Positions 6,017 through 55,480 of a stretch of DNA of 64,000 bases are shown here, one piece after another (the stretch's first letter is position 1; each line of letters begins with the position of its first letter). Position numbers and translations under genes: made by a program. The stretch comes from an uncultured Bacteroidia bacterium (GTDB taxonomy: Bacteria > Bacteroidota > Bacteroidia > J057 > CALLMJ01): assembly GCA_938006875.1 (NCBI GenBank), contig CALLMJ010000091.1, positions 13,177 through 77,176 on the forward strand, in the 5' to 3' direction. Under the pieces are notes generated by a model. The model was given only the letters and a program-made list of their open reading frames with translations. It was not told the DNA's origin and made no database searches.

Positions 6017-6017
6017 T

Positions 6018-6257
6018 TTAACTGTTAATTCTTACCTCTATATACTTGACAACATCACCAACGGTAGAAATTTTTTGTGCATCTTGATCAGGAATAGTAA
6101 TGTTAAATTCTTTTTCTAATTCCATGATTAATTCAACGGTATCAAGAGAATCCGCACCTAAATCATTAGCGAAACTTGCTTCGGGGGTTACTTCTTTCGC
6201 TTCAACGCCGAGTTTATCAACAATAATACCTCTAATTCTTTCTAAAATACTTGCCAT
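6018..6257 (-). CDS. acpP: Acyl carrier protein
   Basis: 79 aa with the phosphopantetheine attachment motif [11 protein letters not shown]. Confidence 0.95.
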
Positions 6258-6377
6258 ATTTCTCTTATTTATTGTTTTGTATTGAACTGCAAAAATAACT
6301 TTTTTTTTACAAACAACAAAATAATGCTAAAATATCAACCAAACTAAAAACAAAAAATTGAAAATGAATTATTTAAG

Positions 6378-10065: not shown

Positions 10066-13000
10066 TTAATATGCTGTTAAATCAATTTCTGGCATTATAC
10101 CAAAGAATTTCACTACTTTTTGTCCTAAATCACCTGCGTCTATATGAATAATATAGACACCACTTGCAACAGGGACACCATTATTATTTTTCAAATCCCA
10201 TTCTAAGTTGGGGGCATCTGAATCTTTTTTATAAGTTCTAACTAAAGTACCATTTAAAGTAAATATTTTTACTGTACATTTTTGTGGTAGATTAGTTAAT
10301 TTAACTCTACTATCGACCTGAGTATTTTCGTATCTATATTTACCTGTACCAGAACGTCCATAATAAGGATTAGGAACAACTCTAATTAAATCCAAAGCAT
10401 TCTCTGCAATATCTTTTTGATTTAAACTTGCAGCTAAGCGATTGGTGTTAAAAGTGTAGGTAGGATTATCATTAGAGAATTTTTTATTCACTCTTAACTT
10501 AATTGTAACATCACAAGGCATGTCTTCTGGTTTTTTGAAAGCAAATTTTGAATCTCTTAACATTGCGATAGTTACCCATGCGAAGGTATTATGAGCATCA
10601 CTTATGGATACAGAACCAACACCCGGAACATTAGGAAAAACATGACCATTATTAGCACCTTGAGCTACGTCTGAATTACCTACTTTTAAACTTTGAGCTA
10701 AGGTAGCACAACCATCATATTCTGTATTGCTTACATATATATAATGACGTCCACCAACTGCATTAAAATCAGACCCGAACGAAGCAGTAGGATTAAAAAT
10801 CATATCATTTCCGTTTTGATTAGCATACCAAGATGCCTCTGCAAATAAAATATTTAATCTTTTTCCATTATCAACATTGATGGCATAACCAGGAAACCAA
10901 GACATACCTTGAGAGTTTATATCAAGGTTTGAGGATTCATTATTGCCATTGATATCTTTAGAAATTGCCCATCTTGCCGTCATAGGATGAGATCCACCTT
11001 GACCAGCATTTGCTAAGGATTTAGTTGGAGAAGATTCAAGAACAACACATCTTGACCATTTTGATTTGTCTCTTGTCAAAACAATATCAACATTAGGTAG
11101 TTTATTTAAAGTAACTGCATCTCCAATAAAAGCTTCATTATTATTTTGAGTTTCAGCATAAGAAATTCTTGGTCCGATAACCCCAGTGATAGAATTATAA
11201 GAACGTGTCATAATATAAGGTGCCCAAGTTCTATCCAAAACTTTTTCAAATACTTCTTTTGGATCATAAGCGAAATAATTTCTATAAAAAGTAATAGAAG
11301 AACCGTCAGCGCCATAATCTTCTGTTACATCATTATTTCCAGGAGTTTTATGAGCGTTACCCGATAATATCCAGTTCCACTGATCAACAGTATTGGTTTC
11401 ATAATCTTCAAGACCAGTTAACCATGCTTTTGAGGGATCGCTATGTTCAATAGTAGCACCAACAAAACCATTAGTAGGGTCATTCGCCCAATCCCCAGGA
11501 TCAGAAACATCTCTAGCAGAAATAGAAATACCATGTCCATTAATAATTTTTTCTACACCATTTAAAGGTTTAGGATTAGATACACCGGTAGCAGTATCGT
11601 AAACATAAGTAGATTTAAATAATTCCTGCCACACGTTGTTGGTCTTAGTATATAATATCCAATCAGCCCGAACTTGAGTTGAACCTCTATTCTCAATGAG
11701 AGTATCAACCGTCAGTCTAATCATATAATCTCTAGCTTGAACTTCTTTTGGGTTTACTACCTTTATATCAAAAGGTCCAAAACCCGACTGATAAACTAGT
11801 TCATTGACTGTTCCAGACAAGATATTATTTTTAATATCGTCACGCAAATCTAAAAATCTACCACCTGTACCATTTCCTTGATTACGAGTAATTTCTGGTG
11901 CATCACCGTACTGTGAATTTATACGGGTACCAAAATTTTCAAATTCAACTTTATGAGCTACAGCTTTATATCGTTTAAAATTACCGTTACCAGGAACAAA
12001 TTTTCTTCCATCAGCAGAAGTATCATTATAAGCATAGGCAATAATCGTATAATAATAAGGTCTATAATTTACTAAACGTTTATCGGAACCATCAGCAAAT
12101 AAATCTTCGGTTACTCTCACCGATCTAACAATTCCTTTATTAGAACCTTGAACCATGATTTGGTCAACGATTACAGGTTCCGTTAAACCAGCAACTAATT
12201 CAGAAGTTCTATTAACAATGGTTGAAACTGAATCTTGAATATCACATTGCAATAAAACTCTTGCTTTATCGGAATTATTAAGTTCAGAAGCTGATACAGT
12301 ACTATCAATTAATTGATAAACTATGTATCCTTGAAATTTAAAAAAGGGAGATTTTCCAGGTGGTAAAGATGAACTTGCTAGAACGGGATCTTTTTCAGCG
12401 TAATTTTCAAAATAATTATTGGAAATTAGACCAATTTTAGAATAATCCCAAGTTAACAATAATTCTTTATCGTACTCATTAATTGTTAAATCTGGTGCGT
12501 CAGGACCATTTAAAACTTGGAAATCGTTATCAAATAAAGCTTGAGCAATGTCGTCAGCTCGTAGTAGTCTACATAAAGAAGCTATTTCATCATTAGGAGA
12601 ACCAGGAGCCCATACAGCACCAATCACAATTTCATTTACTGCACCAGGAGTTAATGTAAAAGGACCTGCTGACATCAAGAAGCGTCTATCAAAGGGAGGA
12701 TTACCAGCCGATTTTTCAGTCCAACCTGATGCAGCAGCACAAGGACCACCAGGCCATCCAGGAAATATATAATTGGTTCTAGGGAATGCAGTACTCTCAG
12801 CAGAACGACCTCTCTGACCGTCAGCAGTCATGGGAGAGCCATCTTTCCAAAATCCTGTTAAATATTGATAAAAATGATTAGGGCTTGAAGGATTACCATA
12901 AGGAGTAAAGTCATTATCATAATAAACAAATTTTGCCATACCGATTCTTTCTCCTGGCTCATCAATCATTCCATCTTTATCATTATCTACACCATCGTTT

Positions 13001-30962: not shown

Positions 30963-31700
30963 GGTCATTGAGTAGGCACAGCCATACCGAAGGTCATTGA
31001 GTAGGCTTAGCCGTACCGAAATGACTTTGTTTCGGAGAAAAGCGGTCGTTTCGGTACGTTCGCTTCACTCACTACTCAACGAACGCATATATCTATGACC
31101 AGTCATTGAGTAGGCGTTGCCGTACCAAAGGTCATTGAGTAGGCGTTGCCGTACCGAAATGACCTTGTTTCGGAGAAAAGCGGTTGTTTCGGTACGTTCG
31201 ATACACTCACTACTCAACGACCGCATATATCTATGACCGGTCATTGAGTAGGCGTAGCCGTAACGAAGGTCATTGAGTAGGCGTTGCCATATCGAAGGTC
31301 ATTGAGTAGGCGTTGCCGTATCCAAATGACCTTGCTTCGGGGAAAAGCGGTCGTTTCGGTACGTTCGCTTCACTTTCTACTCAACGACCGCATATATCTA
31401 TGACCAATCATTGAGCAGGCGTAGCCGTACCGAAGGTCATTGAGTAGGCGTTGCCGTATCGAAATGACCTTGTTTCGGAGAAAAGCGGTTGTTTCGGTAC
31501 GTTCGCTTCACTCTCTACTCAACAACCGCATATATCTATGACCAGTCATTGATTAGGCGTAGCCGTACCGAAGGTCATTGAGTATGCGTTGCCGTATCGA
31601 AGGTCATTGAGTAGGCGTTGCCGTATCGAAATGACCTTGTTTCGGAGAAAAGCGGTCGTTTCGGTACGTTCGCTTCACTCTCTACTCAACAACCGCATGT
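30963..31700 (+). repeat. Higher-order tandem repeat array: 12 copies of a 29-nt direct repeat in five units (138, 138, 167, 138 and about 157 nt). Each unit is closed by an 80-nt tail carrying an inverted copy.
   Basis: Read directly from the sequence. Consensus sub-repeat: GGTCATTGAGTAGGCGTTGCCGTACCGAA. Sub-repeat starts: 30963, 30992, 31101, 31130, 31239, 31268, 31297, 31406, 31435, 31544, 31573, 31602. Tail: ATGACCTTGTTTCGGAGAAAAGCGGTCGTTTCGGTACGTTCGCTTCACTCACTACTCAACGACCGCATATATCTATGACC. No ORF of 60 aa or more in any frame. Confidence 0.95.
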
Positions 31701-31738
31701 ATTATTATAAAAAAAACCTATGAGAAGAATTTATTTTT

Positions 31739-33102: not shown

Positions 33103-33130
33103 TTTTCATATTAAAATTAAGAGATTTTTA

Positions 33131-33213
33131 GTTTTCCGAAGCTATAGATAAGCCCACTTCGGAAAACTCAGTGTAAAGGTAGCAACGCAAACCATAAGAA
33201 AGCAAGTCCATGC
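33131..33213. repeat. GC-rich intergenic hairpin element, copy A
   Basis: Perfect 10-bp hairpin TTTTCCGAAG (33132-33141) / CTTCGGAAAA (33157-33166). The 27-nt core AGCCCACTTCGGAAAACTCAGTGTAAA (33151-33177) recurs at 36184-36210 with one difference. Confidence 0.7.
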
Positions 33214-33301
33214 TAAAATAAAAACTTCTAAATTTTTCACAACAAATTGCTTTTTAGTTTTGTTTTTGAAGAAATATATTGTTAATTTTGAAAATTGGTT
33301 T

Positions 33302-34017: not shown

Positions 34018-34824
34018 ATGAATAAACTTATAAAAGCTATTCAAAACAAAAATTCTTATTTGTGTGTGGGTTTAGATGCTTCACCTATTTATTGGTCTCA
34101 AGACATACCTTCAAATGTTCAAGGGTTAGAATATTTTTGTAAGTCTATTATTGAAGCAACCCAAGATTATACGATTGCTTATAAATTAAATTTGGCTTTT
34201 TTTGAAGTTTGGGGACACGAAGGATTAGAAACGATGAACAGAATTTTAGAATTTATTCCTCATGATATTTTCACTGTTGCAGATGCAAAAAGAAGTGATA
34301 TTGGTCACTCTGCAAGTTTTTACGCAAAAACTTTTTTTGAAACTTATAATTTTGATTCTATTACTGTGAATCCTTATATGGGCAAGGATAGTATAGAACC
34401 TTTTTTAGAGTATAAAGATAAAATAACTTTTTTGTTAGGTTTAACTTCAAATGAAGGCGCAGAAGATTTTCAGTTAATGGGTGACCCTCCTTTTTATGAA
34501 CAAGTTATTAGAAAATCTATGTTATGGAATATTCATAATAATATAGGTTTTGTGATGGGTGCTACACGCCCAAATGCAATCCAAACACTCAGGAACATTT
34601 ATCCTAAAGCACCGTTACTAATACCCGGTATTGGTGCACAATCCGGTGATTTAGCCAAAACTATTCAAAATGCTTATTACAAAGATACTCCTATGTTAAT
34701 CACCATCAGTAGAGCTATACTTTATGCTGATACTTCCAAAAATTTCCTTCAAAAAGCCAAAGAAAAAGCTCTAAATTATTATCAAGAGATTTCCCAAATT
34801 CTTCATGAACTTTCTCTTTCTTAA
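34018..34824 (+). CDS. pyrF: Orotidine-5'-phosphate decarboxylase (type 2)
   Basis: LCVGLD, KLNLAFFE and ADAKRSDIGHSA motifs of long-form PyrF. Confidence 0.9.
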   Translation: MNKLIKAIQNKNSYLCVGLDASPIYWSQDIPSNVQGLEYFCKSIIEATQDYTIAYKLNLAFFEVWGHEGLETMNRILEFIPHDIFTVADAKRSDIGHSASFYAKTFFETYNFDSITVNPYMGKDSIEPFLEYKDKITFLLGLTSNEGAEDFQLMGDPPFYEQVIRKSMLWNIHNNIGFVMGATRPNAIQTLRNIYPKAPLLIPGIGAQSGDLAKTIQNAYYKDTPMLITISRAILYADTSKNFLQKAKEKALNYYQEISQILHELSLS

Positions 34825-36001
34825 CCGTTTTTTTGCTATCATCATTTTGATTGGAGTGGTGATTGTTCTCGGAACATTGTATTATTCCAATAGTTTGGTA
34901 AGTACCTTAGCAAAGGAAGAAGAAAATCGTATTCGTTTGTATGCAGAAGTTTTAAAATATATTGCTAATTCCGAAAATACTGAAACCGATTTTTTGTTCA
35001 ATCATATCATAAAAATTGATACCAATAAAATTCCTGTTATCAATGTACCAGCTATCATTGTAAACGAAAAAGGAGAACCCATAGGAGATAATTTGAATCT
35101 GCCCAACAATTTAACTTATGAACAAAAAAAAGACCGTATTTTAAAAGAACTAGATTACATGAAATCCTTTGGTTTTGAGCCTATTCCGATTGAATACGTG
35201 AAAGAAAAATTTAATTACATTTATTACCGTGAATCCGATAACCTTATTAGATTGAGAAATTATCCTTATGTAACCTTTTCATTATTATTGGTTTTTGTAT
35301 TGATACTTTTTGTTTTATTTTATATTGCTAAAAGAAATGAACAAAATCAAGTTTGGGCTGGATTAGCCAAAGAAACCGCTCATCAGTTGGGAACTCCTAT
35401 TTCTGGTTTAATTGCTTGGATTGAACTTCTAAAACTTAATGAAAATGAAGACGTTAAAGTAGCTGTTGAAGAAATGGAAAAAGATGTGAATAGATTAGTA
35501 AAAGTTTCTGAACGATTTTCAAAAATTGGTTCTACTCCCGAACTTACTCTTCAACCGATCCTTCCTACTTTAAACCAACTTGTAGAATACATGCAAACCC
35601 GTTTTCATAATAATGGAAAAATTTTTATTCAATTAATTCCTGAAATTTCAGAGGATTTATCTTTACCCTACAATAAAATTTTATTAGAATGGGTATTGGA
35701 AAACCTAATCAAAAACGCTATAGATGCTTTTGAAAAAGGTACTGGAAAAATTCTCATTCATATTCATCTACAAAATCACCAATTATTCATTGATGTAACA
35801 GATAACGGTAAAGGTATAGAACCTAAGCATGTCAAATATGTATTTAAACCGGGTTTTTCTACTAAAAAAAGAGGTTGGGGACTGGGTTTAAGTTTGGCAA
35901 AAAGAATTATAGAATTTTATCACAAAGGAAAAATTTTCGTTTTACATTCTGAAATAGGAAAAGGAACTACATTCAGGATTGTTTTAAACGTATTGACATA
36001 G
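34805..36001 (+). CDS. Membrane sensor histidine kinase (no response regulator adjacent)
   Basis: Two TM segments. H-box ETAHQLGTPISGL, N-box ENLIKNAIDAF, G1 DNGKGI, G2 GWGLGLSLAKRI. Overlaps pyrF by 20 nt. Confidence 0.85.
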   Translation: MNFLFLNRFFAIIILIGVVIVLGTLYYSNSLVSTLAKEEENRIRLYAEVLKYIANSENTETDFLFNHIIKIDTNKIPVINVPAIIVNEKGEPIGDNLNLPNNLTYEQKKDRILKELDYMKSFGFEPIPIEYVKEKFNYIYYRESDNLIRLRNYPYVTFSLLLVFVLILFVLFYIAKRNEQNQVWAGLAKETAHQLGTPISGLIAWIELLKLNENEDVKVAVEEMEKDVNRLVKVSERFSKIGSTPELTLQPILPTLNQLVEYMQTRFHNNGKIFIQLIPEISEDLSLPYNKILLEWVLENLIKNAIDAFEKGTGKILIHIHLQNHQLFIDVTDNGKGIEPKHVKYVFKPGFSTKKRGWGLGLSLAKRIIEFYHKGKIFVLHSEIGKGTTFRIVLNVLT

Positions 36002-36040
36002 CTGTTGTGAAAAGTGAATTATGTAAAGTCAAACTAAACT

Positions 36041-36247
36041 TGTGGTGTGATTGAGGAATCCGAAGGGCACAATTCGATACTCATTGACTACGAATTGGCA
36101 CTGCCTTTTGATGCTGAGTTTACCGAAGCAGAAAAAGGATTGTGAAATTATTGAGTTTACCGAAATGCCGAAGAGAACTGCGAAGCCCACTTCGGTAAAC
36201 TCAGTGTAAACATCAGCCCGACCCGCAGCGTAGCAAGAGGAAAGCCC
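36041..36247. repeat. GC-rich intergenic hairpin element, copy B (long form)
   Basis: Perfect 15-bp stem CTGAGTTTACCGAAG (36114-36128) / CTTCGGTAAACTCAG (36190-36204). A second forward arm TGAGTTTACCGAAA sits at 36152-36165 inside the loop. The core AGCCCACTTCGGTAAACTCAGTGTAAA lies at 36184-36210. The 5' part TCATTGACTA...GGCACTGCC...TACCGAA resembles the 29-nt sub-repeat of the 31-kb array. Confidence 0.75.
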
Positions 36248-36356
36248 CAATCATCATCGTTTTTAATCCATAAAATTTTATCAAACTCTAAAAAATCAAC
36301 GAAAAATTTCTATTACTGATTAAAATTTTTCTATAAATTGCAAACGTTTTGGATAT

Positions 36357-39300
36357 ATGAAAAAAACATTATTCTGGTTATTGTACTTCATTCCATTTTT
36401 TAACTTTGCTCAAGTTACGGACGATTTTTCTGATGGGGATTTTACCAATAATCCTACATGGATAGGTGATGTTTCAGAATTTATTGTGAATGGTAATTTT
36501 CAATTACAATCCAATGGACCGGCTGCAAGTGCTACTCTATATTTATCCACTTCTTCTACTTATGCAAACAACTGTGAATGGCGTTTTTGGGTTCGTTGTG
36601 CTTTTAATCCTTCTACTACCAACCTTGCTCGTATTTATTTAATTTCTGACCAAGCTAATTTAGAAGGCTCTTTAAATGGTTATTATATCCAAATTGGTGG
36701 TATCACTGGCAATGCAGATGCTATAGATTTATTTAGACAAGATGGTAATACCCGAACTAAAATTATTAGTGGAATTCCAGGAAATGCAGGTGCAAATGAT
36801 AATATTTTGGGTATTCGCGTTATACGTGATGCTTCTGGTAATTGGTCAGTTTATTCGGATATTACAGGAGGCACCAATTACCAATTAGAAGGTAATGCTA
36901 CTGATAATACCTATTCTACCTCCGCTTTTATGGGAATTGTTTGTGTACATACCGCTACACGTAACACTTCGTTTTATTACGATGATTTTTATGCGGGTCC
37001 AATCATTGTGGATACAACTCCCCCTTCCGTAAATGCACTAAATGTAATAGACGCAAACACTTTAAGAGTAATTTTTTCGGAAGGTGTTACTCCTGTAACT
37101 GCTCAAAATGTTTCTAATTATTCAGCGAATAACGGTCTGGGAAATCCCGCTTCAGCAAATTTAATCAATGCAACTACCGTTGAATTAGTATTTTCTAATA
37201 GCTTTGTAGACGGTTTACAAAATACATTAACCGTTCAAAATATTTCAGATTATGCAAGTAATCTCATGCCAAGCCCTCAAAATATTGATTTTACTTACTT
37301 TGCACCAGCGGTAGCAGTAGAATATGATGTGGTTTTCAATGAACTAATGGCTGACCCTGACCCGCAAGTAGCTTTACCCAACCAAGAATTTATAGAAATT
37401 TATAATCGTTCTAACAAAAATTTGAATTTACAAAATTGGACTTTATCAGATTTAAGTTCTACGGTTACTTTGCCTAATTATATCCTTGCACCTAATTCAT
37501 ACTTGATTTTATGTGCTAATGCACATGTATCTTTGTTTTCAGGTTATGGACCCACTTTGGGTTTATCCTCATTACCTTCTTTGAATAATTCATCCGATGT
37601 TTTTACCTTAAAAAATCAAAATGGCGATGTGATTGATGTAGTAGCTTATTTTGATTCTTGGTATAAAGACCCTATCAAGAAAAATGGTGGTTGGACATTA
37701 GAAAGAATAAGTTACGATAATTTTTGTAGAGATTCTGCGAATTGGGCAGCTTCTGTCAATCTCAATGGAGGTACTCCTGGAGTCCAAAATTCTATTTTCA
37801 ATCAATTTACTGATATTTTACCACCACAACTGGTTTCCGTTTCCCTTCAAGACCCTCAAACTATCGTATTAAATCTGAATGAATCCATTGACAGTGTAGA
37901 TGCTCTCAACTTCAATAAATATCTGGTAAATAATGGTATAGGTAACCCTCAATCTGTTCAAATTACCAATAAACTTAAAACCCTTATTTTAACTTTTGCG
38001 AATGCTTTACAACCCTCTGTTATTTATGAACTTACTGTTACGAATTTAAAAGACTGTATCGGAAATGTAAATAACAGTTTAACAGTAAATTTAGGTATTC
38101 CAGAACCAGCAAATCCCAATGATGTTGTAATCAATGAATTCATGGCTGACCCTGACCCCGTCATTGGTTTACCCAACCAAGAATTCGTAGAATTATTTAA
38201 TGCTTCTAATAAAATAATTGATTTAGGTGGGTGGAAATTTGCAGATGCTTCTACGCAAGTAACTCTAAATTCTTTTCTGCTTTTGCCTAATTCATACGTA
38301 ATTTTAACTTCCACAGCAAATGCAAATTTATTTATTTCTTATGGAAATGTTTTAGGTGTAGGCAGCTTACCTTCCTTAAATAACACGTCAGATGATTTGT
38401 ATTTGTATGACAATAATGATGTTCTCATTTCTACTGTCAGTTATAAAGATAGTTGGTACAGAGATCCTTTGAAAAAAAATGGAGGTTGGACTTTAGAAAG
38501 AGTTAGCCCTTTTATTACTTGTAATGACTCTGCAAATTGGAGAGTTTCGGAAAATCCTCAAGGTGGTACTCCTGGTGCTCAAAATTCTATTTTTAATCAG
38601 TTTACTGATATATTACCTCCTCAACCTTTAGGAATTACTGTTATTAATCCTAACATTATCCAATTGAATCTTAATGAATCGGTAGATATTGCTGATGCTT
38701 CCAATCCTAATAAATATGTGATTAACAACGGTATAGGCATAGCTCAAAGTGTGAACATTTTAAATAATGGAACTACATTAGAATTAATTTTTTCGAATAC
38801 ATTACAGCCAAATGTGCTTTATGAGCTTGTTGTCAATAATTTACGTGATTGTATTGGGAATATCAATAATTACTTTACGATGATTTTAGGTATTCCAGAA
38901 CCTGCAAATCCCAATGATGTTGTAATCAATGAATTCATGGCTGACCCTGACCCCGTCATTGGTTTACCTAACCAAGAATTCGTAGAATTATTTAATGCTT
39001 CTAATAAAATAATTGATTTAGGAGGGTGGCGTTTCACTGATGGTTCTTCAAACGTGAATTTACCTTCTTATTTGCTTATGCCCAATACTTATGTACTCTT
39101 GACTTCAACGTCTAACGTAAATTTATTTACTCCTTATGGAAATGTTCTTGGTGTGGGCAGTTTGCCTTCATTAAATAACTCAGGTGATGATTTAGCTTTG
39201 TATGATGCGAATGACAACTTAATCTCACAAGTAAAATATCGTGATTCTTGGTATCAAGATAACATAAAAAAAGCCGGTGGTTGGACGTTAGAACGTGTAA

Positions 39301-41339
39301 ATCCTTATATAACTTGCAATGATTCTGCGAACTGGCGAGCTTCTGTGGACACACGAGGTGGTACGCCTAATGAACAAAATTCTATCTTTGGACAAATTCA
39401 AGATGTGCTTCCTCCCAATATTTTTAACGCTTTTGTAGAGTTACCCAGCACTATTTATGTTATTTTTAACGAAACATTTGACCCTTCCTTGTGGGATATT
39501 TCAGATTTTGATTTACAAGGATTTGGAAATCCCATTTCTTATTCAACTGCGGATAATCCCACGTTAAAACTTACTTTTTCTAATACTTTTGTACAAGGGA
39601 CTATTTATACGTTGAATATTCAAAAAGTAAAAGATTGTGTGGGAAATCAAGCCAATAATTTAAGTATTCAAGTTGGAATACCCATACCAGCAGATTTTAA
39701 CGATGTAATTATCAATGAAATTATGGCAGACCCTGACCCCATTGTGGGTTTACCAGAAGTGGAGTACGTAGAAATTTATAACCGTTCAAACAAAATTTTA
39801 GATGTCTCCGAATGGACTTTATCCGATAACCTTTCAAATGGTAAATTTCCCCAAAATAGCATTATTATGCCTAATTCTTATTGGTTATTATGTTCTAACA
39901 GTGCAAGTAATGAATTAAAAAACTTAGGTAATACATTTGCTTTAAGCAGTTTTCCAGGGCTAAATAATAGTGGCGAATTAATTACATTACGTGATAGAGA
40001 TGGAAATCTCATTGATTTTGTGTTTTATAAGGATAGTTGGTATCGTGATGAAATAAAGAAAAACGGTGGTTGGTCATTAGAAAGAATAGACCCTAACTCA
40101 TGCGTCGTAGAAGAAAATTGGAGAGCCTCTATGGACATTACCGGTGGAACCCCTGGACGTATCAATTCTATTTTTGGTCAAATTTTAGATACCATTCCCC
40201 CAAAAATTCAGGAAATCAAACTTATTAATAAAACTACTATCCTAGTGGTTTTTAATGAAAAAATGAATGAAACCGATTTAGAAAATCTACAACTTTATGA
40301 TTTACAACCCAGTATAGGACAACCAGCTCATGTTATTTCCAATTTTGAAAAAAATCAAATAGAGCTTATTTTTCCTTTTGAATTGGATAGCAACCGTGTT
40401 TATACCTTGAATATCAATAATATAAAAGATTGTTCTGGTAACCTTTCAGCTCTTTTAAGTGGAGAAGTTGCTGTACCCATTTCTGCTCAAAAAGGGGATA
40501 TTATTCTCAATGAAATTTTATATGAGCCACGCACAGGCGGAAAAAGATATATAGAAATTTATAACAAAACCAACCAATGGTTAGATATAAGCAATTGGAA
40601 AATTGGACGTGCTAATGATGCTGATGAAGTGTATCAATCCGTAAAAATTCCTGATTATTTGGTCATTAGACCTTATGGACATATGGCTTTCACTCAAGAT
40701 ACTTTTAACATTAAACAAGAATATAACCCTCCTGTTCACGCTGTTTTGGTGCAATTAAGTAAAAGTATTCCAGCATATGACAGTAAATCAGATAAAGTGG
40801 TTTTAATGAATTCCCAAGATGTAAGAATAGATGAAGTTCGTTACAGCCGTGATTGGCATTATAACGACTTAGTAACTCGTAGAGGTGTTGCCTTAGAGCG
40901 TTTAAGTCCAGACCAACCTTCCCAAAGTGAATCCAATTGGTTTTCAGCAAGTTCTATTGTTCGTTATGGTACACCTGGCTATAAAAATTCTCAATCTTAT
41001 AGACCAGAAAATCAAGATAAAACCTTTTACATAAACCCTAAAATATTTTCACCAGACTTTGATGGTTTTGATGATGTTTTGGCATTACATTATGAATTCC
41101 CCCAAAATGATAACAACATTCGTATTACCATTTTTGATAGTGAAGGAAGAATTATCAAAATATTGAAAAACAATTTATTAGTAGGTAACGAACCCGGTTA
41201 CTTTTTATGGGACGGAACTGATGATTCAGGAAGAGTGGTTCAAATTGGTACTTACATTGCAGTTTTGGAAGTAGTGAATATTGGAACAGGCGAAAAGAAA
41301 TCATATAAAGCGGCTTTTGTGGTAGCAAAAAAGAAATGA
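36357..41339 (+). CDS. Giant (1660 aa) secreted protein with five lamin-tail-domain (LTD) modules alternating with Ig-like modules and a C-terminal FlgD-Ig/T9SS-like domain
   Basis: Signal peptide MKKTLFWLLYFIPFFNFAQ. The LTD core motif (V/I)INE(F/L/I)MADPDP..GLP..E(F/Y)(V/I)E(L/I)(F/Y)N occurs four times, plus a diverged fifth copy (ILNEILYEP...YIEIYNKT). The C-terminus is FSPDFDGFDDVLALHY...ITIFDSEGRIIKIL...WDGTDDSGRVVQIGTYIAVLEV. Confidence 0.85.
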   Translation: MKKTLFWLLYFIPFFNFAQVTDDFSDGDFTNNPTWIGDVSEFIVNGNFQLQSNGPAASATLYLSTSSTYANNCEWRFWVRCAFNPSTTNLARIYLISDQANLEGSLNGYYIQIGGITGNADAIDLFRQDGNTRTKIISGIPGNAGANDNILGIRVIRDASGNWSVYSDITGGTNYQLEGNATDNTYSTSAFMGIVCVHTATRNTSFYYDDFYAGPIIVDTTPPSVNALNVIDANTLRVIFSEGVTPVTAQNVSNYSANNGLGNPASANLINATTVELVFSNSFVDGLQNTLTVQNISDYASNLMPSPQNIDFTYFAPAVAVEYDVVFNELMADPDPQVALPNQEFIEIYNRSNKNLNLQNWTLSDLSSTVTLPNYILAPNSYLILCANAHVSLFSGYGPTLGLSSLPSLNNSSDVFTLKNQNGDVIDVVAYFDSWYKDPIKKNGGWTLERISYDNFCRDSANWAASVNLNGGTPGVQNSIFNQFTDILPPQLVSVSLQDPQTIVLNLNESIDSVDALNFNKYLVNNGIGNPQSVQITNKLKTLILTFANALQPSVIYELTVTNLKDCIGNVNNSLTVNLGIPEPANPNDVVINEFMADPDPVIGLPNQEFVELFNASNKIIDLGGWKFADASTQVTLNSFLLLPNSYVILTSTANANLFISYGNVLGVGSLPSLNNTSDDLYLYDNNDVLISTVSYKDSWYRDPLKKNGGWTLERVSPFITCNDSANWRVSENPQGGTPGAQNSIFNQFTDILPPQPLGITVINPNIIQLNLNESVDIADASNPNKYVINNGIGIAQSVNILNNGTTLELIFSNTLQPNVLYELVVNNLRDCIGNINNYFTMILGIPEPANPNDVVINEFMADPDPVIGLPNQEFVELFNASNKIIDLGGWRFTDGSSNVNLPSYLLMPNTYVLLTSTSNVNLFTPYGNVLGVGSLPSLNNSGDDLALYDANDNLISQVKYRDSWYQDNIKKAGGWTLERVNPYITCNDSANWRASVDTRGGTPNEQNSIFGQIQDVLPPNIFNAFVELPSTIYVIFNETFDPSLWDISDFDLQGFGNPISYSTADNPTLKLTFSNTFVQGTIYTLNIQKVKDCVGNQANNLSIQVGIPIPADFNDVIINEIMADPDPIVGLPEVEYVEIYNRSNKILDVSEWTLSDNLSNGKFPQNSIIMPNSYWLLCSNSASNELKNLGNTFALSSFPGLNNSGELITLRDRDGNLIDFVFYKDSWYRDEIKKNGGWSLERIDPNSCVVEENWRASMDITGGTPGRINSIFGQILDTIPPKIQEIKLINKTTILVVFNEKMNETDLENLQLYDLQPSIGQPAHVISNFEKNQIELIFPFELDSNRVYTLNINNIKDCSGNLSALLSGEVAVPISAQKGDIILNEILYEPRTGGKRYIEIYNKTNQWLDISNWKIGRANDADEVYQSVKIPDYLVIRPYGHMAFTQDTFNIKQEYNPPVHAVLVQLSKSIPAYDSKSDKVVLMNSQDVRIDEVRYSRDWHYNDLVTRRGVALERLSPDQPSQSESNWFSASSIVRYGTPGYKNSQSYRPENQDKTFYINPKIFSPDFDGFDDVLALHYEFPQNDNNIRITIFDSEGRIIKILKNNLLVGNEPGYFLWDGTDDSGRVVQIGTYIAVLEVVNIGTGEKKSYKAAFVVAKKK
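38094..39027 (+). repeat. Intragenic 795-nt-period duplication inside the LTD gene, with an almost identical tract of about 140 nt
   Basis: 38094-38232 and 38889-39027 differ at only about 3 positions by eye (GGTATTCCAGAACC[A/T]GCAAATCCCAATGATGTTGTAATCAATGAATTCATGGCTGACCCTGACCCC...). The flanking module sequence is clearly more diverged. Confidence 0.9.
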
Positions 41340-41361
41340 TAGAAAAAAACGCATTCTTTGG

Positions 41362-41390
41362 CTGCGAAGTGGTAGCGAAACCATAAACAA
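41362..41390. repeat. Short fragment related to the GC-rich intergenic elements (copy C)
   Basis: CTGCGAAGTGGTAGCGAAACCATAAACAA combines CTGCGAAG (compare 36178-36185) with GGTAGC..GAAACCATAA (compare GGTAGCAACGCAAACCATAAGAA at 33179-33201). Confidence 0.4.
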
Positions 41391-41451
41391 TAATCTATAT
41401 TTTATTTGCAACTCAATTGCAATTGCAATAATTTTGTAAAAAAAACGAAAA

Positions 41452-46522: not shown

Positions 46523-46799
46523 ATTTATGAAATGTTTGGCAAAAATAATGAAAAACTTCTAAATAAACAAAAAATACAATAAAGGAGTAAAACCCAACCC
46601 CGTTTAATCAGCTATCTGAAAATATTCCTTCAGAAATGCGGGGTTTTGATACCAATTGGGTGCAAACCACCTTTAATAATCCTACTGCCCAGTAAAGCTC
46701 CCCTCCTGCTGGAAATATATCTTTGAAGTTCGCTTCGTAAACGAAAGTAAAAATAAAAGTGATTTAATTTGGGAACAAATTTTGTATTTTTGTGGAAAA

Positions 46800-53464: not shown

Positions 53465-55480
53465 TTATTTTTTTTGAAACGCTGGATGTTTTATTTCTTT
53501 ATAACCACCATATTTTGCATAAAGTTCAGGTAAATTTTGTTCTTCTTCAGGATACATTCTTATTAACCAAATAAAATTTCTTTTTTCTACCAAATGTTTC
53601 ATCATGATGTCCTTAGTTTCTTTTTGGCTAAGCTTTACTTTTTTTAGGTTAGGTTCACCATTGCGTTTTCTTAAATTCTTTTCATCTTTGGGTACTAAAA
53701 CTACTAAATGTTTAATGCTTGGTGATTTACGATATTTTACTTTGATTTTTGTAGAGTCTCCATCAACATATCTTACGTATTGAATTAAACGATTTTTAAT
53801 GATATAATCCGTAACAACACTTTTCCCAAATTTTTGAGTCTCTATGATTTGACCCGCTGAAACTCCAGAATAAATAGAATTAAGTTTACAAAAACGTCTT
53901 TTGTTTGTGAAAAAATATTTTAAATCGTCACCCACTCTCTCTAAATTGGATTTGGGTTGAACAATATTCGGATCACAAGGTACTTTGTATTTGTCTAAAG
54001 GTCTATGGCAAATTTTTAAACTTTTATAACAAACATTATCCAATTGTTTATGTTTTACACGGAAAGGTTTTTCACCGCAAGCCAAATCTAATTGCTTATG
54101 TTTCACGCGAAAAGGTTTTTCACCGCAAGCCAAATCTAATTGCTTATGTTTCACGCGGAAAGGTTTTTCACCGCAAGCCAAATCTAATTGCTTATGTTTT
54201 ACGCGGAAAGGTTTTTCACCGCAAGCCAAATCTAATTGCTTATGTGGTACTATTAGTTTTGGATAACAAACATTGTCTAATTGACGATGAGGAATTACTA
54301 ATTTCGGGTAACACATTCTGTCCAAACTTCTATGAGGTACCACAACTTTTGGGTAACAGAAATTTTGGGGATTACCTCTTTTCTGTTTGTATTTGGGCAT
54401 ATTAGCAAAATCTAAATTTTTATGCTTAATTCTTAAACTTTTAGGAGAAATTCCATCTAAACCTCTATGAGACATTCTGTACCTTGGCATGGTAACTCCA
54501 TCATACTGCTTATGTTTCATAGAAATAAAATTTTTAGGATTTCTTGATAACATTACATAACTTGCCGTGGGTATAACAATCAATCCTTTTTTTATTTTTT
54601 GAGCATATTGTTTGGCTACTCTGGTAGGTTTATCCACTTTAAATGCGGGCTCTCTATCTCTTTGTTTTTTAGAGTATATTCTTCTGTTGTCTAAATTCTT
54701 ATGTCTTACAGGGTAAGAAGCCATTCTACGTCTATCCAACTGTTTATGATGAACATGGTAAGAACGCATCGTTTTTAAATCCCTTTGATAATGCTTTTGT
54801 TGATAGTTCGCATATTTACGGCTATCTAAATTTCTATGTTTAACTTGATAGTTCGCATATTTACGGCTATCTAAATTTCTATGTTTAACTTTGTAATTTC
54901 CAGAGAACTTTTTGTTATCGAGTGAATTATGTCTTTTTTGATATTGAGAATAACTTTTGTTATCTAAGCGATTATGTTTTTGTTTGTAATTACCCGCAAA
55001 TCTTTTGTTGTCTAAGGAATTATGTTTTACTCGGTATTGAGGGATATTGACGTTATCAAGCCCTTTTCTACGAATTTTATTTTTATTACCATAAGTTACA
55101 TAATCTAAACTTTTAGGTTTATATCGTTTAATACGGTAAGGGTTTTGGGCTTTATCTAAAGTTTTATGGTATTTTTTAGGATTTTTTTCTCTAAAAGCCT
55201 GAAGTTTTTGTTGAAATTTTTGACGTTTTTTTTGTTGAGCTTGGAACTGCTTAGCTTTTGCAATTTGTTGTTTTCTTAAATGTTTTATATTTACTTGTTT
55301 CTTTTTATGAGGCGTAAACTTGGCTTCTTTTCTGTGATTTCTATGACTTGGATTACAAGTTGGACCTGTACAAGGTTTAAACTCTTGTTCATCTTGTGCA
55401 TTGACAATCAACGGATTAGCCAACAACAAGAAGCCCCAAATCAATAAAATTATTTTATATGGACTCAAAAAGTTTCGCAA
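53465..55480 (-). CDS. Exported, extremely basic repeat protein of unknown function (671 aa, about 20 degenerate H-[KRN]-x-L-D repeats)
   Basis: TTG start as listed. Signal-peptide-like MRNFLSPYKIILLIWGFLLLANPLIVNAQ. Lys/Arg/His/Gln-rich body with recurring (V/I/Q)(K/R/P)H(K/R/N)xLD every 14-16 residues. A non-repetitive C-terminal region of about 170 aa. I recognise no family. Confidence 0.8.
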   Translation of the reverse strand: MRNFLSPYKIILLIWGFLLLANPLIVNAQDEQEFKPCTGPTCNPSHRNHRKEAKFTPHKKKQVNIKHLRKQQIAKAKQFQAQQKKRQKFQQKLQAFREKNPKKYHKTLDKAQNPYRIKRYKPKSLDYVTYGNKNKIRRKGLDNVNIPQYRVKHNSLDNKRFAGNYKQKHNRLDNKSYSQYQKRHNSLDNKKFSGNYKVKHRNLDSRKYANYQVKHRNLDSRKYANYQQKHYQRDLKTMRSYHVHHKQLDRRRMASYPVRHKNLDNRRIYSKKQRDREPAFKVDKPTRVAKQYAQKIKKGLIVIPTASYVMLSRNPKNFISMKHKQYDGVTMPRYRMSHRGLDGISPKSLRIKHKNLDFANMPKYKQKRGNPQNFCYPKVVVPHRSLDRMCYPKLVIPHRQLDNVCYPKLIVPHKQLDLACGEKPFRVKHKQLDLACGEKPFRVKHKQLDLACGEKPFRVKHKQLDLACGEKPFRVKHKQLDNVCYKSLKICHRPLDKYKVPCDPNIVQPKSNLERVGDDLKYFFTNKRRFCKLNSIYSGVSAGQIIETQKFGKSVVTDYIIKNRLIQYVRYVDGDSTKIKVKYRKSPSIKHLVVLVPKDEKNLRKRNGEPNLKKVKLSQKETKDIMMKHLVEKRNFIWLIRMYPEEEQNLPELYAKYGGYKEIKHPAFQKK
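54041..54243 (-). repeat. Four near-perfect 48-nt tandem repeats inside the basic repeat-protein gene
   Basis: CACCGCAAGCC recurs at 54073, 54121, 54169 and 54217 (period 48 nt). The repeats encode 4 x HKQLDLACGEKPFRVK. Confidence 0.95.
54801..54890 (-). repeat. Perfect 45-nt tandem duplication inside the basic repeat-protein gene
   Basis: TGATAGTTCGCATATTTACGGCTATCTAAATTTCTATGTTTAACT occurs at 54801-54845 and again at 54846-54890. It encodes 2 x a 15-aa unit containing VKHRNLDSRKYANYQ. Confidence 0.95.

Follow-up and report, generated by a model that had tools for sequence, protein, structure and literature searches.

The 64-kb stretch of DNA analysed here (the window; contig CALLMJ010000091.1), which protein searches place in an uncultured lineage of Bacteroidia, carries a GC-rich intergenic element at positions 36044-36258, between a histidine kinase gene and a gene for a large LTD/Big_5/CHU_C protein. 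Judged by its sequence blocks and a local match to the family model, this element is a diverged, mosaic copy of a dispersed repeat family that appears to be undescribed and that is named R1 here. Members of R1 share a fold that is specific to one strand, are dispersed and turned over between relatives, exchange their hairpin arms and have no coding capacity. Which polymer folds, and what moves it, we infer: with moderate confidence, R1 is read as a non-coding, non-autonomous mobile or recombining intergenic repeat of low-GC Bacteroidota that folds as single-stranded DNA (ssDNA).

Homologues of the kinase led to syntenic contigs of relatives, among them L027 (GCA_964493765.1), whose kinase is 93% identical to that of the window and which carries four R1 copies in 21 kb. 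The core shared by the L027 copies then provided a pattern for a metagenome scan, which returned at least ~70 low-GC contigs with an almost invariant 37-nt core. An R1 covariance model was subsequently run on 444 kb of low-GC Bacteroidota contigs chosen for this core, giving 79 R1 copies. Fifty-seven unique full-length copies, ranging from 129 to 515 nt, have one common framework: 5'-GCGTG AGGGATGCGGAGGGC (H1, 2-24 nt) GGCACTGCC (H2, 19-197 nt) GGATTGCCGAAGCGAWAGCGAAGCCCGNAGCAGCCCGACCCGA (H3, 12-372 nt) GAGGGG CACGC CCAAA. With a fourth variable site marked, its middle part reads (H2) GGATTG (site 4) TGCCGAAGCGAWAGCGAAGCCCGNAGCAGCCCGACCCGA (H3). R1 is therefore described here as a conserved core of ~130 nt with six helices, plus three or four variable hairpin arms. 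A description in terms of different left and right modules was rejected: what had looked like distinct modules on either side is the inner sequence of long H2 and H3 arms. The commonest H3 arm, of 103 nt, contains a terminator-like hairpin.

RNAalifold, applied to 11 compact copies, yielded six helices (P1-P6) with 29 pairs. P1 is the closing helix, P2 and P3 surround a junction from which H1, P4/H2 and a two-pair hairpin P5 branch, and P6 bears H3. Compensatory changes are seen even among four copies in one genome (UGC/GCA to AGU/ACA, GC-GAAA-GC to GU-GAUA-AC, and G-C to A-U). Across 76 distinct copies, 93.4% of cells are paired, compared with 34-45% after a shift of the 3' partners by 1-3 columns; both sides have changed in 15 of the 29 pairs, and none of 500 shuffles matched any of the five pairing measures. 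Since the copies were aligned to the model and came from loci chosen for the core, its conservation is partly built in; this does not apply to the pairing of the variable helices (1, 4, 5 and 8). In 56 of the 57 copies, the element strand has the more stable fold (-112.6 vs -99.7 kcal/mol), and U:G pairs recur at two fixed positions. In the window, the better-folding strand is the plus strand.

In most cases R1 forms the 3'-terminal module of a longer repeat cluster, with a sharp ...CACGCCCAAA end. The 12 nt that follow this end are A-rich on the element strand at the 57 loci (TAAAAAT-like, ~64% A), which could reflect a tail, a preferred target or the A-rich 5' leaders that Bacteroidota genes typically have. 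In the Ga03083xx population, other repeat families cluster upstream of R1 over up to ~1 kb (L040 1-830 and L050 6650-7010); these clusters contain, for example, CCCCTTCTCTAAATGAATTAGAGAGGGGG hairpins and CCACCAACGAAGTTGGTGG, and in them truncated 5' blocks of R1 (GCGTGAGGGATGCGGAG) recur, joined to TTTTCACTCACCCCC units.

The window copy keeps the conserved blocks GGCACTGCC, GGATTG, TGCCGAAG..GCGAAGCCC and CAGCCCGACCCG in order on the plus strand (36097-36225), and the ordered family parts, including GGGC, H2 and an H3 capped by GCGTAGC, span 36065-36237. The R1 covariance model matches it only locally (36099-36142, E 0.017), and 20 of the 29 consensus pairs are retained once two inserts are trimmed. 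P3 (4 of 4 pairs) and P4/H2 are intact, P2b and half of P5 are gone, and P1 has been swapped for a different, longer helix. The nearest copy is L27a, with 92% identity over 48 nt. The terminal blocks of the family, GCGTGAGGGATGCGG... and ...GGGGCACGCCCAAA, are not found in the window copy, which has GTGTGATTGAGGAATCCGA... and ...GGAAAGCCCCAATC instead, and it would therefore represent a diverged subfamily or a decaying copy. That it may be decaying is suggested by the loss of P2b and half of P5. Its parts and immediate neighbours are as follows.

36044-36258, plus strand: whole element, a diverged R1 copy by the blocks it has in common with the four L027 copies and by the local match to the R1 model
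36044-36056, plus strand: 5' strand of the closing helix, predicted to pair with 36245-36258 in both the RNA and the DNA minimum-energy folds; it replaces the GCGTG/CACGC P1 of the family with other sequence
36065-36068, plus strand: GGGC, 5' strand of P3, with GCCC at 36185-36188 as its partner in the consensus structure
36070-36097, plus strand: variable arm H1, an AATTCG...CGAATT hairpin in the folds, at a site that is variable in the family (2-24 nt)
36097-36105, plus strand: invariant block GGCACTGCC, 5' strand of P4 in the consensus structure
36104-36138, plus strand: arm H2, CCTTTT...AAAAAGG, supported by the R1 match and of the H2 type present in L27a, L053 and L086
36114-36128, plus strand: forward arm 1, CTGAGTTTACCGAAG, the tip of H2
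36152-36167, plus strand: forward arm 2, 5' strand of an extra helix, inserted at the fourth variable site between GGATTG and TGCCGAAG
36166-36188, plus strand: core TGCCGAAG-AGAACT-GCGAAGCCC (P4', P5 and P3'), including a GCGAAGC mini-hairpin at 36180-36186
36188-36204, plus strand: inverted arm, 3' strand of the extra helix, following GCCC and able to pair with either forward arm
36214-36225, plus strand: conserved block CAGCCCGACCCG (P2' and the start of P6)
36225-36237, plus strand: arm H3, with a GCGTAGC mini-hairpin cap at 36228-36234
36245-36258, plus strand: 3' strand of the closing helix, from the RNA and DNA minimum-energy folds
34805-36001: histidine kinase gene, bordering the element on its 5' side
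36357-41339: LTD/Big_5/CHU_C gene (1660 aa), bordering the element on its 3' side and on the same strand as the element
36029-36250, minus strand: spurious open reading frame (ORF) of 73 aa with a TTG start codon, crossing the repeat

An earlier note on this DNA had drawn attention to a perfect 15-bp inverted repeat in a 355-nt gap between the kinase and LTD genes, with a further forward copy inside the loop, and to the high GC content of this island. All of these observations hold. The kinase gene ends at 36001 and the LTD gene starts at 36357; CTGAGTTTACCGAAG (36114-36128) and CTTCGGTAAACTCAG (36190-36204) are 100% complementary; the second forward arm, TGAGTTTACCGAA(ATG) at 36152-36167, is 94% complementary over 16 nt to 36188-36203; and the GC content rises to 0.41-0.52 in the element, compared with ~0.30 in its surroundings. 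The inverted repeat is real and not a product of chance: the 64-kb window contains no other perfect 15-bp inverted repeat with a loop of up to 100 nt (0.1 expected from 30 dinucleotide shuffles), and its 27-mer core is found again 3 kb away, as described below.

Comparison with relatives revealed variable occupancy of the sites. The kinase-LTD gap of L027 measures 124 nt and lacks the element, while ~95 nt before the LTD start codon still align. Relatives with kinases 84% and 80% identical to that of the window have no copy after the kinase gene, and L155 (79% identical) has an R1 copy right after it in the opposite orientation, antisense to the gene. The two L155 copies lie on the minus strand at 11246-11377 and 2514-2671, and a called 275-aa ORF runs across the one beside the kinase. 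Relatives carry 0, 2 or 4 copies per 15-21 kb. All four L027 copies are intergenic, and both orientations occur; they include copies in the LTD-TonB receptor gap and the NADH dehydrogenase-trypsin-like protease gap, where the window has no R1 copy. Exact-protein look-ups with the kinase and the enoyl-CoA hydratase found no identical protein on record.

Two features of the window lie at these L027 sites. A small GC-rich hairpin, GCTGCGAAGTGGTAGCGAAACCATAAAC, is present at 41345-41400 in the LTD-TonB receptor gap, where L027 has its full R1 copy; it resembles an R1 H3-type arm (GCGAAGTGGC..GCCAC) and the 3' part of the copy at 33 kb (GGTAGCAACGCAAACCATAAG). Upstream of the NADH dehydrogenase gene, at 46560-46745 (minus strand), there is a GC-richer island that has no R1 match and is not significantly structured (z = -0.14).

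Arms are exchanged between copies. At one locus with identical flanks in related strains (L066 700-1200, L081 3010-3420 and L127 2340-2750, all on the minus strand), H2 is 19 nt long in two contigs and 117 nt in the third; as far as the aligned sequences tell, the H2 hairpin cassette is swapped cleanly here. The genes that neighbour R1 copies are functionally unrelated. The main metagenomic population also belongs to the Bacteroidota (one contig encodes BamG), and it is distant from the window organism, the sole marker in common, a ribosomal-type protein, being 57% identical.

Within the window, a second, 5'-truncated copy is located at 33128-33215 (plus strand), in the gap after the enoyl-CoA hydratase gene, with arms at 33128-33141 and 33157-33171 flanking a core remnant. 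The earlier note had proposed a search for further copies of the 27-nt core of the 36-kb element: the 27-mer recurs at 33151-33177 with a single mismatch, where no such recurrence was expected, and the arm opposite has changed along with it so that the pair is kept (A:T to T:A). This copy has a single forward arm only and lies upstream of a gene unrelated to the LTD gene. A same-species contig (L157 530-800; Logan ERR9287890) differs from window 33137-33180 by seven substitutions clustered in 45 nt, the flanks being 100% identical. The L157 version, CCGAAGCAATAGCGAAGACC, is near the canonical core, and the 33-kb copy is therefore a truncated R1 derivative. The 33-kb version of the window is nearer to the 36-kb copy than that of L157 is, which suggests gene conversion, or hairpin-linked mutation, as the source of these substitutions.

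Under the reading of R1 as a mobile or recombining repeat, its fold would form in ssDNA and be recognised in trans by an enzyme, for which HUH/Y1-type single-strand transposases are the obvious candidates. Gene conversion between copies would then shuffle H1, H2, H3 and site 4, which behave as exchangeable cassettes. ssDNA is favoured over RNA because of the loops. The element strands have 139 GCGNAGC and 57 GCGNNAGC caps, whereas their complements have 5 and 0 (196 caps vs 5). DNA mini-hairpins of the GCGNAGC/GCGNNAGC type have melting temperatures of 70-76 °C, whereas r(GCGAAAGC) melts at 39 °C (PMC13037366), and known REP hairpins bear the same GAA caps; the R1 caps thus match very stable DNA structures and those of an established class of repeats. 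Moreover, the P5 loop is GATA as often as GAAA (26 and 24 copies, respectively), and GNA triloops dominate the apical loops of the element strand (57, with 27 GNYA and 21 GNRA). The occurrence of both orientations relative to genes, the lack of an evident shared promoter motif in the upstream flanks as read by eye and the terminator-like hairpin in the 103-nt H3, which would cut an RNA short, all agree with ssDNA. R1 is taken as non-autonomous because no protein family recurs next to its copies and no Y1 transposase motif was found in ~430 kb of loci; these are loci and not whole genomes, and RAYTs are single-copy genes.

Confidence in this reading stays moderate because no mobilising enzyme was found in the loci examined and because the complexity of the core is unlike that of known substrates. 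The six-helix core with its conserved purine-rich junctions is far more complex than known REP, MITE and IS200/IS605 ends, and resembles a functional RNA. Other observations likewise weigh against it. G:U (G:T in DNA) wobble pairs are tolerated. The earlier note had proposed a check for target-site duplications, and none were found in 57 flank pairs, nor were direct repeats or a fixed target; the four bases before the element vary (ATAT, GTTT, AGCT, ATAA, TGTA, GTAA and others). Setting filled sites against empty ones in the window and L027 did not reveal clean ends, the intergenic DNA being too diverged. All six copies in the window and L027 are co-oriented with both flanking genes, which would suit a role at the transcript level. 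Finally, the core is near-identical in organisms that have only 57% identity in a ribosomal-type protein, which requires horizontal spread or strong constraint.

A structured RNA, either acting in cis in the untranslated regions of mRNAs (end protection, termination or insulation, as proposed for REPs) or present as a multicopy small RNA, is the main rival, though a clearly less probable explanation. It would account for the six helices with compensatory changes, for the strand-specific G:U pairs and for the GNRA loop in P5 of about half of the copies. Orientation also speaks for it, both in the six co-oriented copies of the window and L027 and overall, where among 31 copies with both neighbouring genes called, 17 have the same orientation as both and 6 the opposite orientation to both. 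Read-through transcription of the kinase gene would then include the window copy: no terminator-like site was detected on the plus strand between the kinase gene and the element, and as RNA the copy folds more stably than its shuffles (z = -2.67). Against this, R1 copies are antisense to both neighbours in 6 of the 31 cases and antisense to the kinase gene in L155, their neighbouring genes are functionally unrelated, and GATA loops and GNA triloops are not favoured RNA loops. The ends show neither a shared promoter motif nor an intrinsic terminator when the flanks are read by eye, with the promoter and terminator scan covering the window copy only, and a terminator-like hairpin lies within H3. 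The density of copies (four in 21 kb in L027) and the turnover of sites would suit a selfish repeat better.

Searches against known RNA families also argue against an RNA of a described kind. Rfam 15 (4227 models, including HEARO, Flavo-1, ribozymes and riboswitches) gave no match at the gathering threshold for the window or for eight loci with canonical copies, and nothing relevant for either at E values up to 10. AaHKsRNA41 (Aggregatibacter small RNA 41) matched window 36025-36217 on the minus strand weakly, at E 0.009 over 451 nt and with 21 bits where the threshold is 97, and the match was judged to be due to chance; this family has a similar GCUGAGCUUGCCGAAGC...GGUUCGGCAAGCUCAGC hairpin. 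A search of the window for tRNA and tmRNA genes found none. R1 had no match in plasmid or phage collections and chance matches only in viral contigs. Scanning a genome collection that does not include the source genome with the window-specific pattern GCCCACTTCGGNNNNCTCAGTG returned 26 single hits in many phyla, compared with ~17 expected by a hand estimate based on collection size. No paper with the conserved strings or with such a repeat turned up, whether the literature was searched by sequence or by subject.

Less probable still is an orphan, protein-less RNA or end module of an insertion sequence (TnpB/IscB omega RNA or IS110 bridge RNA), or a self-cleaving ribozyme of a retroelement; we regard this as improbable. 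R1 resembles HEARO and omega RNAs in being multicopy and strand-specific, with a complex fold and variable arms, and its usual position as the 3'-most module of clusters with a sharp ...CACGCCCAAA boundary could be that of such an end. Yet no recurrent ORF or protein family neighbours any of the 79 copies, HEARO, the IS605-orfB motifs and all Rfam ribozyme families are without a match, and a variable guide-like segment was not identified.

Beyond these alternatives, R1 might be more than a further REP or MITE and stand for a class of structured mobile nucleic acid of its own, in which a scaffold of six helices carries exchangeable hairpin cassettes, either a new ssDNA recombination substrate or a catalytic or guide RNA, maintained nearly unchanged across distant Bacteroidota through horizontal spread or function. 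We consider this broader proposal rather doubtful.

The arms that first marked out the window copy can be placed within this scaffold. Forward arm 1 is the tip of H2, which in L27a, L053 and L086 has the family-typical form GCTGAG-N(5-8)-CGAAGC. Forward arm 2, at the fourth variable site, where the inserts differ from copy to copy, and the inverted arm enclose the P5 region as an extra helix. The extra helix also occurs in the 33-kb copy and in no copy of any relative examined, and the three-arm layout is therefore a lineage-specific addition to the family scaffold. Forward arm 2 and the inverted arm would have been acquired at site 4 and beside GCCC, respectively, and build the extra helix from a TGAGT..TACCGAA module that also underlies the 31-kb array described below.

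It is very unlikely that the two 5' arms with their one 3' arm regulate the LTD gene as a switch, in the manner of an attenuator or of a riboswitch-like leader. Both alternative pairings are possible (15 of 15 and 15 of 16 nt), and the element lies upstream of the LTD gene on the same strand. However, the LTD orthologue of L027 has no such leader even though ~95 nt before its start codon are conserved, the 33-kb helix lies upstream of an unrelated gene with one forward arm only, no terminator with a U-tract follows the window element, and family members adjoin unrelated genes. That two arms are available to one partner most likely stems from the duplication of the module and not from a switching function. 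The sole likely local effect of the window copy is a stable structure between the kinase and LTD genes, in the DNA or in a transcript.

A protein encoded by the 73-aa frame, or an inverted repeat formed by chance, can safely be set aside: the frame exists and is the sole minus-strand ORF of at least 50 aa here (the plus strand has one of 52 aa at 36051-36209), but it starts with TTG, crosses the repeat, belongs to no Pfam family and has no homologue among 5.8 billion proteins that would make it a gene, while the inverted repeat is unique in the window and its 27-mer recurs.

The earlier note had also linked the element to a tandem array at 31 kb (30963-31702, plus strand), whose hairpin arms are related to those of the extra helix, and had proposed a single repeat superfamily dispersed to several intergenic sites. 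A dispersed family does exist, with the 33.1-kb copy, the four copies of L027 and the 79 in 444 kb, and the array is not a member of it: the R1 covariance model has no match there and blastn with the element as the query finds nothing there. The likeness claimed between the 5' part of the element and a 29-nt array sub-repeat is not distinguishable from chance with normal gap costs (76 of 500 shuffles reach the score, p = 0.15; 22 of 500, or 0.04, with permissive costs), and the GGC-N3-GCC motif taken for a trait of the array is in fact the invariant GGCACTGCC strand of R1 helix P4. The note had also proposed that the element has the two 5' arms and one 3' arm of each array unit; the architectures are only loosely alike, since arm 1 is the family H2 tip and not a tandem sub-repeat.

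What the two do have in common is a short module. The 10-mer TACCGAAATG is indeed shared by the element and the array, and the arms of the extra helix, ATTGAGT-T-TACCGAAATG ... TTCGGTA-A-ACTCA, resemble array arms of the form ATTGAGT-AGGCGTTGCCG-TACCGAAATG ... TTCGGTA-(17 nt)-ACTCAA. With the array inserts allowed, their gapped score is 30, compared with 17.6 +/- 3.5 for shuffles, and is reached by 2 of 1000 shuffles (p ~0.002) and by 3 of 1785 other window segments. The 33-kb copy shows no significant likeness to an array unit. A relative whose kinase is 80% identical has at least nine tandem 26-nt units, GAACGTTGAGTAATATATCGAAACGT, downstream of a TonB-dependent receptor gene and running to the contig end (L153 15640-15895 and L154 13895-13989); their TTGAGT..TAYCGAA unit is that of the window array, without the GGC-N3-GCC insert. 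At the site of the window array, L027 (4997-6780) has a mechanosensitive-channel gene and then a canonical R1 copy, and the array and this copy each end ~88 nt before the AhpC start codon. On these alignments, the link between array and element is real but modest, and amounts to a short shared module and not to R1 membership.

Three further features of the window were noted in passing. The minus-strand ORF at 53465-55480 contains a 48-nt tandem repeat (54038-54245; 4.3 copies, 95% matches) and a 45-nt tandem repeat (54800-54891; two copies, 100%). A small acyl carrier protein gene lies at 6040-6260 (minus strand) in the GC-richer gap 6017-6377, below the ORF cut-off of 100 aa.

If the R1 family is as it appears, uncultured Bacteroidota carry dense, fast-turning and structurally complex intergenic repeats that are undescribed in the resources searched (Rfam, the phage and plasmid collections and 8 million papers). 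The multi-helix core, swapped arms and DNA mini-hairpin loops make the mechanism testable, with regard to whether ssDNA or RNA folds, which enzyme moves the element and how gene conversion keeps copies uniform. Elements of this kind also give rise to spurious ORF calls, interrupt assemblies and pass for non-coding RNA genes when GC-rich intergenic regions are screened. The window copy itself is diverged and probably decaying, and its three-arm layout is a local embellishment.

Among known systems, REP/BIME/REPIN repeats, which are mobilised by the RAYT (TnpA-REP) transposases of the HUH Y1 type, are similar to R1 in being extragenic, relatively GC-rich and locally dense, with single-strand hairpins under GAA-type caps. 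They are also mosaics with other modules, vary in occupancy and maintain their structure by compensatory change. However, a REP consists of one imperfect palindrome, 20-40 nt long, that bears a GTAG-type tag at its 5' end and mostly belongs to an inverted pair, whereas R1 has a six-helix core of 130 nt, no tag and occurs singly. With regard to membership, R1 is extragenic, many-copy and mosaic (as in the clusters of L040 and L050) and lacks the GTAG/CGTC tag at the foot. In the Bacteroidetes, the REPs of RAYT subclass 2.6 are simple hairpins of 24-49 nt plus one palindrome of ~120 nt (PMC6006769, Table S1). No link of R1 to RAYTs was found: these REPs are unlike R1, and the R1 loci searched (~430 kb) have neither a Y1 motif nor a recurrent neighbouring ORF.

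MITEs, pneumococcal BOX, ERIC and Correia elements are non-coding, non-autonomous, intergenic, 100-500 nt long, modular and foldable when transcribed. R1 is likewise non-coding, non-autonomous and intergenic, and is modular with variable sub-modules. In contrast to MITEs, its terminal inverted repeat is of 5 bp only (GCGTG/CACGC), there is no target-site duplication, and the conserved internal multi-helix junction is not known from any of these elements. The fixed tetra- or pentanucleotide found 5' of the insertion in PATE, which derives from IS200/IS605, is not seen for R1. The R1 copies in 21 kb of L027 point in both directions, which speaks against a strict bias in replication direction of the kind PATE shows. 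Riboswitches and attenuators differ from R1, which has unrelated neighbours and no terminator, and is absent before an orthologous LTD gene.

HEARO and omega RNAs resemble R1 in their multiple, strand-specific, intergenic copies with a complex fold and variable stems, often without an adjacent ORF; R1 differs in having no Rfam match, no nuclease gene at 79 loci and loop types that favour DNA. R1 also resembles, in its loops, signals that act in ssDNA, such as the G4 and phiX174 origins, ssiA and the N4 hairpin promoters (PMC13037366). While those are single-copy origins or promoters of phages and plasmids, and R1 copies are scattered over chromosomes in both orientations with no match in the phage or plasmid collections, both carry the same GCGNAGC/GCGNNAGC caps, on one strand, in multi-hairpin structures of 100-150 nt.

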